Below, piece after piece: positions 1 through 49,220 of a DNA stretch of 64,000 nt. Both the position numbers and the translations under genes were made by a program. The notes under the pieces were generated by a model. That model had not been told where the DNA came from. It did no database searches and saw only the letters and a list, made by a program, of their open reading frames with translations. Positions within the stretch are counted from its first letter, which is position 1, and each line of letters starts with the position of its first letter. The stretch is from Patescibacteria group bacterium (GTDB lineage: Bacteria > Patescibacteriota > Minisyncoccia > Phycocordibacterales > PALSA-1337): contig JAGXAG010000002.1 in the NCBI GenBank assembly GCA_018971685.1, positions 66,276 to 130,275 on the forward strand, in the 5' to 3' direction.

Positions 1-90
1 CCGCCCCGGCGAAGTGTTTCCATCTTATCGCTTCGCTCGATGCGGGGAACACTTGTCGCCGGCTCGACGGTCGCCGCCCTGGCGACGTCT
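1..90. repeat. GC-rich palindromic repeat-family copy A, lying inside the topA reading frame
   Basis: Hairpins CCGGCGAAGTGTT / AACACTTGTCGCCGG and GTCGCC-GCCCT-GGCGAC. The core TCGCTTCGCTCG...AACACTT...CTCGACGGTCGCCGC recurs at 48843-48900 and 38070-38090. Confidence 0.5.
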
Positions 91-389
91 TTCTTTGTGA
101 GCAATTCCTTTAAATGCCAGGCAATGGCTTCACCTTCGCGGTCCGGGTCGGTGGCAAGTAATACTTCGTCGGCCTTGACGGCCTCTTTGCGGATCTCGTC
201 GATGACGGTTTGCTTCTTGGGCACGATCTCGTAACGGGGAATAAAGCCACCTTCGATGTCGACGGCTTTCTTGTTTGACTTGGGTAAGTCGCGCACATGT
301 CCGATAGAGGCGCGCACGACGAAATCGTGTCCGAGGTATTTCGAAATTGTTTTCGCCTTCGACGGCGATTCGACGACCAAAAGTTTCAT
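1..389 (-). CDS. topA: DNA topoisomerase I, N-terminal TOPRIM part (partial; the gene continues past the window start). The frame was found by hand and is not in the ORF track.
   Basis: Minus-strand translation from ATG (complement of 387-389) gives MKLLVVESPSKAKTISKYLGHDFVVRASIGHVRDLP...ATDPDREGEAIAWHLKELL, which carries the canonical TopA TOPRIM motifs. The last ~30 codons (nt 1-90) are GC-rich repeat sequence and do not align to TopA. Confidence 0.75.
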   Translation of the reverse strand, partial: MKLLVVESPSKAKTISKYLGHDFVVRASIGHVRDLPKSNKKAVDIEGGFIPRYEIVPKKQTVIDEIRKEAVKADEVLLATDPDREGEAIAWHLKELLTKKDVARAATVEPATSVPRIERSDKMETLRRG

Positions 390-3130: not shown

Positions 3131-3457
3131 ATGGCACTTACTCAATCAGATAAAATTAAATATAACAAAGAAGATGTGATTAGTCACCATGGCGTAGCTG
3201 CGGTGATTAAAAACATAGCTGGTGAGGTCTTGATGCAAGAGCATGTCAAATATGGCTTTTGGACTATACCTGTCGGAAAGGTCAAGAATGATCAGAGTGT
3301 CCTTGAAGGATTAAGACAGGAGATTCTAGAGGAATGTAATTTACATATTAAGGAAGCTAAAGAATTGATCGTCAAAGATTATTATTACGAAAGGAATGGG
3401 AACAGAGTTAAGGTCACTAGTCATTTGTTTGAGATAAAAAATATGAGGGTGAGATGA
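3131..3457 (+). CDS. Small NUDIX-fold protein with a degenerate Nudix box
   Basis: A VAAVIKNIAGEVLMQ beta-strand followed by GFWTIPVGKVKNDQSVLEGLRQEILEECNL. This matches GX5EX7REUXEEXGU except Q for the first E and a shifted R. Confidence 0.5.
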   Translation: MALTQSDKIKYNKEDVISHHGVAAVIKNIAGEVLMQEHVKYGFWTIPVGKVKNDQSVLEGLRQEILEECNLHIKEAKELIVKDYYYERNGNRVKVTSHLFEIKNMRVR

Positions 3458-3621
3458 AGAATCTCGAACCTGCCAAGCATAGACAGCAGATATTTATGTC
3501 TATCGATAGAATACGACAATTACCTTATCTATCTGATTTGACTTTGTTATATCTGCATCAGATCGGAATCGATAGACCAGCTAAGATTTAAATCGCGACA
3601 CGATTTTCATTCTCGCGAAAC

Positions 3622-4835: not shown

Positions 4836-6449
4836 CTACTTCTCCACCGTCCTTACCGCTTCTATCCTGTCTCCGACCGCAATTTCGACTTTTGCCTCAA
4901 CCATCACCCCGAATTCGTGTCCTTCGGCCACCTCGCTCGTTCTCAGTTTCTTTTCCTGGAGCTCGCGAATTTTGCCCCTGCCGATTTCCGCATCGCGGCG
5001 CATTATCCTGACCTCGTTGCCTGTCGAAATGATACCCGTTTCCACTTTGCCGCCCACGACTTGCCGGTCTTTCTCCTTGGAAAATATCGCCAGAATTTTG
5101 GCGCGGCCCGTCGATTCCTCAATGTATTCTTTCGGCACGCGCGCCAGTAGGGCGTTGCGCACGAATTCCGACAATTCGTATATGATCGAGAAATTTTTCA
5201 CTTGAATGGGGGAGCGCTCGATTATAGCCGCCGCTTTCTTGTCCGGTTCCGCGTTGAAGCCGACGATGACAATGTTTTCCGGATCGCCCAGCGCCGTCTT
5301 CGCGTCTTTTTCATTGATACCGCCGATACCCTCCGAAACAATTTTTATTTTCACTTTGTCATGCTCGATTTTGCCAAGCTCGAATTTCACGCCGTCCAAG
5401 CTACCGACAGTATCGGCTTTAAGGATTATAGGAAAATATATTATTTTGGGCGTTTCCGCCGCCTCGTCATCAGTAAAGGAATCCGAGGGACGCCTCGGAG
5501 GCCGCGAAGGCGGCCGAGAGCCAGCCGCGCCTAGAGCAGTCGGCGACGGCGTGTCCATCGGATCCTTTGCAGATGACGAGGCGGCGCTCCCCGTCAATCT
5601 CTCCGCATCCTTCTTGGATCCTACAGTTACGAATATATCACCGCAGGCCGGCACTTCATTCCAGCCTGTAATAACTACTGGCGTTGAAGCCGTCGCTTTC
5701 TCTATTTTATCACCCTTGAAATCCTCAATGAACCTGACCGGCGAATAAGCTGTGCCGGTCACCACGAATTTGCCGACTTCGAGCACGCCATCTTTCACTA
5801 TGAGCGTGGCGGAAATGCCTTTGCGCGGATCAAGCTCCGATTCGACAACCACACCCTCGGACGGTTTGTTCGGGTCGGCTTTCAGATCGGCCAATTCTGC
5901 AACCAGTATGACCATATCGAGAAGCTCTGAGACACCGGTTCCATTCAAGGCCGAAATGGCAACGCATGGTATATCGCCGCCCCAACCTTCGACATAGATC
6001 TCATTTTCGCCCAGGCTCTGCTTGGCGCGATTTATATCGGCATTCGGCTTATCAATTTTGTTTATTGCGACCACGAATGGAATGCCGGCCGATTTTATCT
6101 CCTTGTATGCTTCTATCGTCTGCGGCTTAACCCCGTCTTCCGCTGATACCACCAATATGGCGATATCGGCCGCTTTGGCGCCGCGTTCGCGGATACCGCA
6201 AAAGGCTTCGTGTCCGGGCGTGTCCAGAAATGTGACGGTATGCTTTTTTTCAGTGCCGGTATTATTGTCTTTGGAAATATGTTCAACCTGGTATGCTCCG
6301 ACATGCTGAGTGATGCCGCCCGCTTCGCCGGCCACAATGTTCGACTTCCTGATGTGGTCGAGCAGGGTTGACTTGCCATGGTCGATGTGACCCATGACGA
6401 CGACTATAGGAGGCCGCTTAACGCGGCCCTTTTCGTGATTATTGGACAT
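4836..6449 (-). CDS. infB: Translation initiation factor IF-2 (short form without the N-terminal domain)
   Basis: G1 GHIDHGKST, G3 DTPGHEAF, G4 NKIDK, a beta-barrel domain II and the C-terminal domains. A Pro/Ser/Arg-rich low-complexity linker (aa ~290-340) is encoded by a GC-rich repeat-like segment. Confidence 0.9.
   Translation of the reverse strand: MSNNHEKGRVKRPPIVVVMGHIDHGKSTLLDHIRKSNIVAGEAGGITQHVGAYQVEHISKDNNTGTEKKHTVTFLDTPGHEAFCGIRERGAKAADIAILVVSAEDGVKPQTIEAYKEIKSAGIPFVVAINKIDKPNADINRAKQSLGENEIYVEGWGGDIPCVAISALNGTGVSELLDMVILVAELADLKADPNKPSEGVVVESELDPRKGISATLIVKDGVLEVGKFVVTGTAYSPVRFIEDFKGDKIEKATASTPVVITGWNEVPACGDIFVTVGSKKDAERLTGSAASSSAKDPMDTPSPTALGAAGSRPPSRPPRRPSDSFTDDEAAETPKIIYFPIILKADTVGSLDGVKFELGKIEHDKVKIKIVSEGIGGINEKDAKTALGDPENIVIVGFNAEPDKKAAAIIERSPIQVKNFSIIYELSEFVRNALLARVPKEYIEESTGRAKILAIFSKEKDRQVVGGKVETGIISTGNEVRIMRRDAEIGRGKIRELQEKKLRTSEVAEGHEFGVMVEAKVEIAVGDRIEAVRTVEK
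5485..5570. repeat. GC-rich palindromic repeat-family segment inside the infB linker
   Basis: Nested hairpin CTCGG-AGG-[CCGC-GAAG-GCGG]-CCGAG. It shares CTCGGAGGCCG with the pyrD copy and GTCGGCGACGG with copy A. Confidence 0.45.
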
Positions 6450-34593: not shown

Positions 34594-35532
34594 TTATACA
34601 AGACTCTTCTCCTTCCTGAAAATCAATAGCCGAAATACGGTTATGGGTTTGCTTCCATGCATATCGATGCTCTTTGTTAACTTAAAACCGGCCTTATTCG
34701 CTGCTTCGACGATATCTCCTAAGGGTCGAAAAATGTCATAGATAGTCCCTTCCTCGTAAACAGTTTTCGGCGTTTCCATACTCAGCGATTTGTGTGGCCG
34801 CTCCGAATTGTAGAAGTCGAAGTAGGCGGCGAGATTCAATCTTGCATCCTCAATATTTTCATACGACTTGATGTACACGTCCTCATACTTCACTGATCTC
34901 CACAACCTTTCCGTAAAGATGTTGTCCATGCACCGGCCTCTGCCGTCCATGGATATCTTCACGCCGTTTCCAGCGAGCAATCCGGTGAAATCATCGCCGG
35001 TGAATTGGCTGCCCTGGTCCGTGTTGGAGATTTCCGGCGCACCATACGTTTCAATCGCCGTTCTCATTGCCCCGACGCAGAAGTCAGATTCCATGGTATG
35101 CGACAGCGCCCAGCCGACGACATATCTGCTCCACCAGTCGAGGATGGCATACAGGTAACAGAAGCCATGAGCCAGTCGAATGTAGGTGATGTCACTGCCC
35201 CAGATGTGGTTCGGGTGCTCGGGACCGATATGCCGCAGAAGGTACGGGTAGAGTTTGTGGTTTGGGTTTTTAACGCTTGTTTTCTTCGTTTTTGGGTAGA
35301 TCGCCTCCAAACCCATGAGGCTCATCAGCCGGCGCACATGGTCGCGGCCAATCGTAACGTCGTATTTCTTTCCAAGATCATGCCGGATGCGGCGGGAGCC
35401 GTAGAAGGGGCGCTTGGTAAAGATTTCGTCGATTGCCTTCATAATTGCGATGTCGGCTTCGTTCACCCTTGGCTCGTAGTAGAAGCTGGCCCTGGAGATT
35501 CCGAGAAGCCCTGTCTGCCTGGTGATGCTCAT
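34594..35532 (-). CDS. IS3-family transposase OrfB (integrase core, DDE)
   Basis: HIWGSDITYI ... DQGSQFT ... ERLWRSVKYE, the rve-domain catalytic triad context. Confidence 0.85.
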   Translation of the reverse strand: MSITRQTGLLGISRASFYYEPRVNEADIAIMKAIDEIFTKRPFYGSRRIRHDLGKKYDVTIGRDHVRRLMSLMGLEAIYPKTKKTSVKNPNHKLYPYLLRHIGPEHPNHIWGSDITYIRLAHGFCYLYAILDWWSRYVVGWALSHTMESDFCVGAMRTAIETYGAPEISNTDQGSQFTGDDFTGLLAGNGVKISMDGRGRCMDNIFTERLWRSVKYEDVYIKSYENIEDARLNLAAYFDFYNSERPHKSLSMETPKTVYEEGTIYDIFRPLGDIVEAANKAGFKLTKSIDMHGSKPITVFRLLIFRKEKSLV

Positions 35533-37189: not shown

Positions 37190-37284
37190 GATATTTGAAA
37201 ATAAATTGTTAAAACTTTCCCTTGTTTTTTAATTGCATCTATTATATCATAATATATGGTATGAACATGAACTACTGGATTAAG

Positions 37285-37363
37285 AAAAACGCCTTGCGTC
37301 CGGTTGCTCGTTGTAGCTCCGGATGCAGGCTTGGGCGAGGATTCCAACAGGGGATCCTTGCCC
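37285..37363 (-). terminator. Structured GC-rich 3' region of pyrD: a 10-bp hairpin (37333-37363) plus a short hairpin CGCAAGGCG followed by T5 (37285-37298)
   Basis: Hairpins and a U-tract read on the minus strand between the pyrD stop and the gap promoter. Confidence 0.35.
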
Positions 37364-37401
37364 ATTTTTAATCAAATTATATTTGAATCCTGACAAAATA
37401 T

Positions 37402-38532
37402 TCATAACATATTGATGTCAGACTTCTGTAAAATATTTTTTATCAATCCAGGACCGCCAAAAATCATCCCCGTAATGAGCTGCAGCAAATCCGCTCCGGC
37501 CTTGAATTTTGCCGCGGCATCTTCTGGCGACATAACGCCGCCGGCTCCTATAATAGTGAACCGCTTGCCGTAAGTTTGCCGCGTCTTCCGGATCAATTCG
37601 TCGGACAACTTGGCGCACGGCTTGCCGGAAAGGCCGCCTTGATATTCCGGCGGCGCTTCCCCGCCGACATCGAGCGAGCCGTAATCTTTATTCAGGTTGC
37701 CGATAACGACGCCGTTGAGCCCGTACATGTCGATGATATCGAGCAAGGCCTTGAATTGGTCCCAGGCCAAATTTATCGGCATTTTGACATAGACGGGTTT
37801 GTTGCAAGGTATTTGCTTCAGTCGAGCCAACAATTTATCGAGTAGTTCCGGCGTGGCGAACGCCTCGCCACCAAAGGCGTTCGGGCACGAAATGTTGATG
37901 GTGTAATAGTCGCCGACATTTTCCTCGTTTAGTCGCCTGAATGAATAGGCGTAATCTTCGACGCCGGTTTCAACTGTCGCGGATTTTTCGTCGTTCGTGC
38001 GCGCTATCGATATTCCCACTACAAACCCAGCCTCCCCCTTCCCGCCGCAACGAAATGTCTCGCATCCGGCTTCGCTTCGTTCGACACCTGTCGCCCGCTC
38101 GGAGGCCGAGGCGGCTGTCGCATGGACTGCTTTTAAACGCTCGATTATCACATCAACGCCATCGTTCTTAAGACCTTTATTGACAACGATGCTGCGTGAC
38201 TTGGGCAACCTCTGTAGGCGCGGCTTGGGATTGCCGGCACACGGCCGCGCAGTCACCGATCCAACTTCTTCGCCGCCAAATCCGACGCATGGCAATATTC
38301 CGCACAAACGCGCATTGTAATCAAAACCGGCGGCCAGCAATACGGGTGTACGATATTTTATCCCGTCCACGGTTTTACCGATGTCTCGGCCGTTATATCC
38401 GTAAATCATATTGGTTGCGGCGCGCGTGATCTCGTGATCACCCAAAAATTCCCCGAAATTGATGAATCGGTCGTGGACAAATTCAGGGTCAAAACGGAAA
38501 AGTATCGGCTTCAACAATTTTCGGTACAACAT
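37402..38532 (-). CDS. pyrD: Dihydroorotate dehydrogenase (quinone), class 2, with a ~30-aa in-frame insertion
   Basis: An N-terminal membrane-association helix, GFGGEEVGSVTARPCAGNPKPRLQRL, NISCPN, and GGLSGKP...IIGAGGV. The segment ATAASASERATGVERSEAGCETFRCGGKGEAG sits between conserved blocks LKAVH and FVVGISIARTND. Confidence 0.85.
   Translation of the reverse strand: MLYRKLLKPILFRFDPEFVHDRFINFGEFLGDHEITRAATNMIYGYNGRDIGKTVDGIKYRTPVLLAAGFDYNARLCGILPCVGFGGEEVGSVTARPCAGNPKPRLQRLPKSRSIVVNKGLKNDGVDVIIERLKAVHATAASASERATGVERSEAGCETFRCGGKGEAGFVVGISIARTNDEKSATVETGVEDYAYSFRRLNEENVGDYYTINISCPNAFGGEAFATPELLDKLLARLKQIPCNKPVYVKMPINLAWDQFKALLDIIDMYGLNGVVIGNLNKDYGSLDVGGEAPPEYQGGLSGKPCAKLSDELIRKTRQTYGKRFTIIGAGGVMSPEDAAAKFKAGADLLQLITGMIFGGPGLIKNILQKSDINML
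38040..38130. repeat. GC-rich palindromic repeat-family copy inserted in frame in pyrD
   Basis: CCGGCTTCGCTTCGTTCGACACCTGTCGCCCGCTCGGAGGCCGAGGCGG shares TCGCTTCG(CTCG)TTCGACAC with the groES-groEL spacer copy and has a CTCGG-AGG-CCGAG hairpin. Confidence 0.5.
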
Positions 38533-47142: not shown

Positions 47143-48807
<1,665 letters not shown>

Positions 48808-48811
48808 TTAC

Positions 48812-48902
48812 ATCCGCGGCTCCCTCCTCGGCGCGACTAAGTGTCTCACATTCGCTTCGCTCGTTCGACACTTCTTGCCGCCTCGACGGTCGCCGCTGGA
48901 GT
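48812..48902. repeat. GC-rich repeat-family copy filling the groES-groEL spacer
   Basis: TTCGCTTCGCTCGTTCGACACTTCTTGCCGCCTCGACGGTCGCCGCTGG is ~85% identical over ~55 nt to window 28-84 (inside topA) and shares the TCGCTTCG..TTCGACAC core with the pyrD copy. Confidence 0.55.
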
Positions 48903-49220
48903 CTATCTTATAATAGCTAATATTTCACTTTCCCTGACTATGTAATATTCCTCCTCTCCGACCTTTATTTTATCTCCCCACTGGAAAAGCACTTCGCTGC
49001 CGACTTTGACCGATACAGGCGTCAGTTTACCGTCCTCTACTTTGCCCGGCCCGACCGCTACTACTTCGCCCTTTTTGCTGCCTTTGTCTTCATTGGCAGT
49101 AACCGGAATGATGATGCCGGTCGAAGTTTTGCGCTCCTTTGATTCGGTGTCTTCTTTTATTAAGACCCTATCCGAAAGCGGTTGTAATTTGATTTTCGTC
49201 TCTTTTGTCTCTTTTGACAT
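48903..49220 (-). CDS. groS: Co-chaperonin GroES (Cpn10)
   Basis: KLQPLSDRVLIKEDTESKERKTSTGIIIP ... GEVVAVGPGK. Confidence 0.9.
   Translation of the reverse strand: MSKETKETKIKLQPLSDRVLIKEDTESKERKTSTGIIIPVTANEDKGSKKGEVVAVGPGKVEDGKLTPVSVKVGSEVLFQWGDKIKVGEEEYYIVRESEILAIIR

Follow-up and report, generated by a model that had tools for sequence, protein, structure and literature searches.

An in-frame palindromic insert in topA of a Patescibacteria bacterium, very probably of the Rickettsia palindromic element kind

Palindromic repeats that lie in frame within protein genes are known from Rickettsia, as described for the Rickettsia palindromic elements by Ogata et al. 2000 (summarised in PMC10969869). 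The repeat that we analysed in DNA of a Patescibacteria bacterium (hereafter the window, meaning the whole stretch of 64,000 nt) resembles these elements as a dispersed imperfect palindrome (~100-150 bp) with open frames of its own; it likewise occurs in frame in unrelated intact housekeeping genes and also in an intergenic position, the host genome is small and reduced, and the inserts are predicted to be situated in fold-compatible loops. It differs from them in its host (Patescibacteria/Paceibacterota, not Alphaproteobacteria), in being GC-rich in a genome of 48% GC and shorter (~107-111 nt), and in that one and the same pyrD loop holds the present family in either orientation and other families of palindromes as well. 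Because of the different phylum and base composition, homology to the RPE families (RPE-1 to RPE-10) is unlikely; by analogy, the element would belong to the Rickettsia palindromic element kind by behaviour, not to the Rickettsia families by descent.

Other palindromic repeats have also entered coding sequence. The Correia elements of Neisseria are bacterial MITEs with intragenic in-frame copies, and the mobile GC clusters of yeast mitochondria and the 'byp' elements are GC-rich palindromes that invade the coding sequence of an AT-richer genome. Both, however, are organellar, and the 'byp' elements are not in frame and the ribosome skips them; every intragenic copy of the present element, by contrast, is in frame. 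For the enterobacterial ERIC/RU MITEs (PMC2759123) and QMITE1 of Coxiella (PMC5896051), in-frame intragenic copies are the rarer case. The present element is similar to these bacterial MITEs in that it is small, has terminal inverted repeats, has no transposase gene, forms a hairpin and occasionally gives translational fusions to host ORFs; in contrast to these MITEs, which are mostly intergenic, five of its six copies are intragenic, and neither a target-site duplication nor a cognate IS was identified for it. The REP/RAYT-associated repetitive extragenic palindromes (20-40 nt, with a GTAG or CGTC tag; PMC3733652) are also GC-rich interspersed palindromic repeats, but identity with them was rejected from the length of the element (107-111 nt) and its intragenic copies, and no RAYT was noticed. 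Full-text literature searches that paired the names Patescibacteria, CPR or Parcubacteria with terms for palindromes, MITEs or in-frame insertion gave no description of the element.

The complete topA gene and its in-frame insert

The window begins within topA, for which the following features were assigned.

1..389, minus strand: 5' part of topA (codons 1-129 and 2 nt; translation, Pfam Toprim E=6e-24)
87..389, minus strand: canonical TOPRIM-coding part of topA, codons 1-101 (MKLLVVESP...WHLKELLTKKD; translation, Pfam)
1..86, plus strand (antisense to topA): element copy 1, 86 of the 111 nt of the topA insert (repeat finding, profile)

The ATG is located at 389-387, and the gene continues past the left edge of the window. 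The translation of the minus strand of 1-389, which was exactly as given in the preliminary description, has the N-terminus MKLLVVESPSKAKT...DPDREGEAIAWHLKELLTKKD and then reads VARAATVEPATSVPRIERSDKMETLRRG. The Pfam Toprim match covers residues 3-103, and codons 1-101 showed 73-84% identity to the N-termini of Patescibacteria TopA; the close relatives (at most 84% identical) were all from Patescibacteria/Paceibacterota. In these relatives, ELLTxKK is followed by a short linker (for example, LGGDISRKEIKRVTYHEITKEA, or ALGGDIPASKIKRITYHEVTKEAVE in the nearest genome locus, L002) and then by the block KR[IV]TYHE[IV]TKEA, which is absent at the corresponding position of the window, as the preliminary description had noted. 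The closest relatives (73-84% identity) lack the insert and read ...KKALGGDIPASKIKRITYHEVTK or ...KKLGGDISRKEIKRVTYHEITK, with LGGD alone at its position.

The missing flank was obtained by look-up of the window-encoded RecR and 191-aa methyltransferase proteins, which led to the NCBI contig JAGWOV010000004.1 (GCA_028870795.1, 54.7 kb; L105/L106), an independent assembly from the same population as the window. The two have 3 mismatches in 13,530 nt (2 SNPs were counted in the 430-aa MFS gene); the contig adds 7.7 kb on the left and, beyond the element, continues through a further 1.98 kb of topA that is free of stops, giving the complete gene.

L106 5727-8099: full topA gene, intact 790-codon ORF (independent assembly)

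The remaining 25 nt of the element copy (window -24..0) correspond to L106 7686-7710, and the insert was thus defined as residues 102-138 (37 aa, 111 nt, window -24..86). Across it, the recovered protein reads ...ELLTKKD, the insert VARAATVEPATSVPRIERSDKMETLRRGGEKVATKTT, and then IPASKIKRITYHEVTKEAVEDAL (longer excerpt, IPASKIKRITYHEVTKEAVEDALRHPRAIDENLKEAQEARRVLDRIVGYDLSGLIWKK), where IPASKIKRITYHEVTKEAVE directly after the insert is the form of the RVVFNEITK block in this lineage. The frame, previously described as open to the window edge, therefore stays open through the full 790-aa gene, and an insertion that derives from the element, after which the conserved block resumes, had been proposed from the window only and is seen in the full-length TopA. 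The ORF is intact with a hydrophilic insert of 37 residues because the length of the element copy is a multiple of three and its frame is free of stops.

Judged from its sequence, the host gene is a bacterial type IA DNA topoisomerase I with all the expected domains in one ORF (Toprim PF01751, Topoisom_bac PF01131, Zn_ribbon_Top1 PF01396 and Toprim_C_rpt PF13368; E=6e-137 for the full-length protein against E. coli TopA 4rul). In alignments with solved TopA structures, residues 2-101 and those from 138/143 on are matched, and the structures have 0-2 residues of their own in between; the insert is positioned in the loop from the helix after the acidic DPDREGE motif to the strand with KRITYHEVTK. 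The earlier placement of the insert at the TOPRIM boundary holds for the Pfam model, which ends there; the structural end of the fold, however, lies elsewhere, and the insert is in an internal loop. The intact ORFs suggest that the insert is translated and tolerated in TopA.

We considered the alternative that the topA-repeat junction is a chimeric product of assembly or that topA is truly disrupted (a pseudogene), since the window begins 25 nt inside the element, repeats often break assemblies, and a 2.4-kb Logan contig of the same genome ends nearby at window 666. This alternative is extremely improbable, because JAGWOV010000004.1 crosses the element without a stop and all the TopA domains are present. 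Further, the region with the topA element is carried by four contigs of 50-200 kb; three contigs of other assemblies match the window at 100%, the pyrD and groESL copies (see below) are crossed at 100% identity in other assemblies, and the window PyrD has an NCBI Patescibacteria match of 100% identity. No match to the topA-element junction was obtained by exact-pattern search in the collections of genome or metagenome contigs.

In a related Patescibacteria population from peat/wetland, topA is split into ORFs of 110 aa and 662 aa (L110 2140-2340 versus L111 373-560). The TopA fragments P0002 and P0004 were examined as a candidate filled/empty pair and rejected, as they are identical to residue 101 and diverge by a 1-nt deletion with no element; from the sequences, with a single-base deletion in the same linker, the split is a frameshift or an assembly error and not an element. 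Near topA, the window contains an AT-rich near-perfect palindrome of 110 nt (533-642) between tRNA-Lys (451-524) and tRNA-Leu (651-733), with 42-nt arms that are 86% complementary (DNA fold z=-8.4); it adjoins the Logan contig break at 666. A NUDIX-like ORF (108 aa, 3131..3457) is overlapped by a 45-aa ORF (3454..3591) that directly follows it, and the pair may be a frameshifted or split gene.

The repeat family in the window and in other genomes

The element is a dispersed, GC-rich (64-67%) imperfect palindrome of ~100-110 nt, and the family is known from six copies, three in the window, two in metagenome contig L090 and one in L107. In addition to the topA copy, the following features were assigned in the window, where the strand of an element copy is its orientation relative to the family profile.

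37402..38532, minus strand: pyrD, 376-aa ORF, class-2 dihydroorotate dehydrogenase (Pfam DHO_dh E=1e-51)
38026..38130 (~38010-38135), plus strand: element copy 3, in frame in pyrD, PyrD residues 135-169, AVHATAASASERATGVERSEAGCETFRCGGKGEAG (profile search)
48806..48902, plus strand: element copy 2, groES-groEL spacer (repeat finding, profile)

All three copies were detected in the 64 kb with nhmmer, in one shared orientation (plus strand). The pyrD copy is read in the same element frame as the topA copy, and copy 2 fills the spacer of 107 nt that separates groES (48903..49220, minus strand) from groEL (47143..48795, minus strand). Since the main profile was built from the window copies, BLASTN and leave-one-out searches were performed to avoid circularity. 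With window 1-90 as the query, BLASTN matched the groES-groEL copy (82% over 50 nt, E=7e-8), the two copies in L090 (84% over 67 nt, E=2e-15) and the copy in L107 (78% over 73 nt, E=2e-9); the leave-one-out profile, built from the pyrD and groESL copies only, recovered window 4-77 (E=3e-5). These searches bear out the preliminary description, in which a GC-rich repeat encodes the tail of TopA in the window, and dispose of the opposite case that it had named, a native divergent segment with no nucleotide similarity to the other copies.

The linker between ELLTxKK and KRVTYHEITK naturally varies from ~0 to 25 aa among Patescibacteria TopA, and the insert could in principle be a native, divergent form of this variable linker that resembles other loci by chance or low complexity. 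We regard this as next to impossible given the significant, non-circular nucleotide similarity to the pyrD, groES-groEL, secA and L107 pyrD copies; moreover, the copies differ in frame and orientation and one of them is non-coding, and the part of TopA past ELLTKKD that is encoded by window 1-86 has a GC content of 67% against 48% across the whole window. A shared functional protein motif behind the similarity of the copies is also unlikely, because they occur in different frames and orientations and one copy is intergenic.

The reading that we prefer, and consider very probable, takes window 1-86 to be the greater part of one 111-nt copy of a non-autonomous, MITE-like palindromic element of the Rickettsia palindromic element kind. 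Such an element would have spread by transposition with an enzyme supplied in trans (107-111 nt have no coding capacity for an enzyme), only the frame-preserving insertions in permissive loops would have survived selection, and the insert would be translated as a surface loop of the host protein. No transposase or autonomous element with matching termini was found, and the window contains no sequence with the termini of the secA copies described below. An IS3-family transposase (34594-35532, minus strand, with an upstream 94-aa ORF; HTH_21, rve, rve_3) is present in the window, with the gap gene on one side and the cluster of infA and ribosomal-protein genes on the other. This IS3-type rve transposase was considered as the partner and rejected, as its ends are unrelated to the element.

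To find copies elsewhere, a degenerate pattern of the element was scanned across JGI/ENA metagenome contigs. Among the 20 loci obtained, true copies were present in L090 only; the other 19 had weak profile scores, and those inspected (L084, L091 and L095) were chance matches. L090 is a 4.3-kb contig of 46% GC from a 0.1-um groundwater fraction, and its 967-aa secA holds two in-frame copies of 107 nt in opposite orientations with 3/107 mismatches, which encode SGEVPTVEAATSVSRRERSGRRETLRRAEEGETSPE and SGEVSPSSARRSVSLLPLRSRRETLVAASTVGTSPE. Both have perfect 12-nt terminal inverted repeats, TCAGGCGAAGTT / AACTTCGCCTGA, at the two ends; the terminal repeats of the window copies are degenerate. These fresh copies are both flanked by ACC|...|AA, with no direct repeat, and no target-site duplication was recognisable at either of them. 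The N-terminus of the same secA (L090 ~1381-1489) contains a third, degenerate insert of ~35 aa, GVVPRAVEARSVAESSRLEGGAISGTLVADERRAGRI, between FRRRL and ETLDDILPE; its match to the profile was weak (E=0.02), and a related element may have left it as an old copy.

Another Paceibacterota MAG (L107, GCA_964355985.1) encodes the nearest homologue of the window PyrD (P0122, 71% identity), and the pyrD loop of this homologue contains the same element family as the window.

L107 7100-7215: element copy in the pyrD loop of P0122, followed by a second palindrome; orientation to the gene opposite to that of the window pyrD copy

This opposite orientation would reflect either an independent insertion at one site or an inversion in situ. 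The element thus has copies at unrelated loci, coding genes included, in at least 3 genomes. A search of 1.24 Mb that flank topA in 80 other genomes gave no copy, an absence with which a lineage-restricted mobile family fits. Viral contigs gave 0 matches to the fresh left arm of the element, and a protein search with four concatenated element-encoded peptides returned nothing at E<=0.01.

Conservation of the hairpin and of the reading frame

The stem CCGGCGAAGTGTTTCC / GGGGAACACTTGTCGCCGG is evident in the sequence of the topA copy, and the loop of the element hairpin is CGCTTCGCTCG. In the alignment of the six copies, a hairpin of 30 pairs extends across the whole element; 91.5% of the hairpin cells are paired, against 78% in shuffled alignments and 30-56% when the partners were slid, and 13 of the pairs are changed on both sides. 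The hairpin has been preserved across the diverged copies through compensatory changes. The groES-groEL copy was predicted to fold as RNA into the full-length hairpin (-43.7 kcal/mol, z=-5.0). Watson-Crick pairs are retained at 29/30 positions in the secA copies and at 21-25/30 in the window copies, among which the topA copy is the most eroded; from this difference, the window copies appear to be older and decaying. Mobility is indicated by the secA copies that differ at 3/107 nt, by the topA genes of relatives that have no insert, and by the absence of copies at the 80 other topA loci; the degraded state of the window copies weighs against current mobility in this genome.

A conserved hairpin would also be expected if the repeat were primarily a functional nucleic-acid structure that overlaps coding sequence, such as a DNA site that binds a protein, or an mRNA hairpin that acts in stability, processing or pausing. 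In addition to the compensatory changes, this explanation may draw on the groES-groEL operon spacer, which is filled by one copy and where an RNA hairpin could matter, and on the window copies, all three of which share one orientation relative to transcription. However, four of the six copies are antisense and two are sense, and the strand-specific G.U pairs showed no bias toward the transcribed strand; with both orientations occurring and no such bias, there is no sign of selection at the RNA level. The same sites lack the element in relatives, the element matched no Rfam family (at gathering thresholds, the window gave five tRNAs only), and the compensatory changes are equally expected if mobility of a transposon needs its ends or hairpin. 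We thus consider a primarily structural function unlikely.

A further alternative is that the element is present in the gene but absent from the mature protein, owing to removal at the RNA level or to translational bypassing promoted by the hairpin. Bypassing is known for gene 60 of T4 and for the GC-rich 'byp' elements of Magnusiomyces mitochondria, and the strong conserved hairpin and the GC-rich palindrome in a more AT-rich genome would be in keeping with it. This is very unlikely in the present case, because all five intragenic copies have a length that is a multiple of three and a stop-free frame, neither of which is needed if the element is bypassed or excised. An open frame alone is weak evidence, as 4/6 reading frames of the consensus and of a fresh secA copy are stop-free. 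The frame is still kept in the old, degraded copies. Neither an intron nor a ribozyme was matched in Rfam, and ~110 nt is far under the size of a self-splicing intron. An intein or a group I/II intron was rejected likewise, given that the insert has 37 aa compared with at least ~130 aa for inteins and that no ribozyme family matched.

Host loops, other palindromic inserts and implications

The PyrD insert has a structural setting similar to that in TopA. Residues 6-135 and 171-368 of the window PyrD are matched by solved structures, which have ~5 residues in between; at this point the window PyrD has 35 extra residues, AVHATAASASERATGVERSEAGCETFRCGGKGEAG, encoded by the repeat. In an AlphaFold model of this PyrD (from a 120-sequence alignment; mean pLDDT 92.5, barrel >90), the insert was predicted as an extension of helix 126-148 followed by coil (pLDDT 58-81). 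The parallel beta sheets of TopA and PyrD (the TOPRIM sheet and the TIM barrel, respectively) have the insertion site at their N-terminal edge, in a helix-to-strand loop in each case, and from the known fold topology the face that bears the inserts would be opposite to the catalytic residues. By the same topology and by analogy with PyrD, the TopA insert is probably at the surface of the protein, where the TOPRIM sheet faces away from the acidic cluster that binds metal.

For the PyrD loop between IIERLK and FVxGISIA, 120 Paceibacterota homologues (P0122-P0240) gave a modal length of 7 aa, and in ~10% of them the loop is 33-74 aa with unrelated sequences; on this sequence comparison, the loop is an insertion hot spot. 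The insert of one of these homologues, P0188 (L108 8733-8867), contains a different near-perfect palindrome, and a 165-nt stretch with it folds at -80.9 kcal/mol. At least 2 palindrome families have thus occupied the PyrD loop, and the present family is found there in both orientations. The pyrD-gap spacer (37190-37401) is 212 nt long and contains a strong hairpin at ~37271-37380 (-55 kcal/mol); in the related L107, it is only 25 nt, and the expansion may be another intergenic insertion.

A different in-frame palindrome was observed in infB (4836..6449, minus strand) at window 5457-5586 (~130 nt, 68% GC), encoding the peptide ...SAASSSAKDPMDTPSPTALGAAGSRPPSRPPRRPSDSF...; no hairpin of the window is stronger than the one that it forms (DNA fold z=-8). 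This palindrome is positioned in the IF-2 linker from domain II to C1, where residues 285-339 are unaligned to solved IF-2 structures, and probably represents a second family of such inserts. The long PyrD loops, the P0188 palindrome and the infB palindrome together suggest that coding loops commonly contain palindromic insertions in the Paceibacterota lineage.

A broader reading may be built on the expansions of the PyrD loop, the at least two families there, the two or three copies in secA and the infB palindrome: several unrelated palindrome families would systematically colonise the same helix-to-strand loops of Paceibacterota housekeeping enzymes, by targeted integration or as exapted hairpins, as opposed to random insertion followed by selection. 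We find this reading rather doubtful. If it is true, mobile palindromes would be a main source of lineage-specific protein insertions in the CPR, and exapted hairpins could serve, for example, as signals for mRNA pausing or processing.

On the preferred reading of the topA insert, in-frame palindromic selfish DNA in essential genes, for which Rickettsia has been the classical case, would extend to the ultra-small, genome-reduced Patescibacteria, with TopA, PyrD, SecA and probably IF-2 as host proteins. Palindromic inserts of this kind would make proteins longer and more varied in length, can break gene calls as well as assemblies, and would put non-homologous columns into the marker-gene alignments used for CPR phylogeny. 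In enzymes that serve as drug targets or as scaffolds for engineering, they would also be natural markers of loops with a tolerance for 30-40 additional residues.
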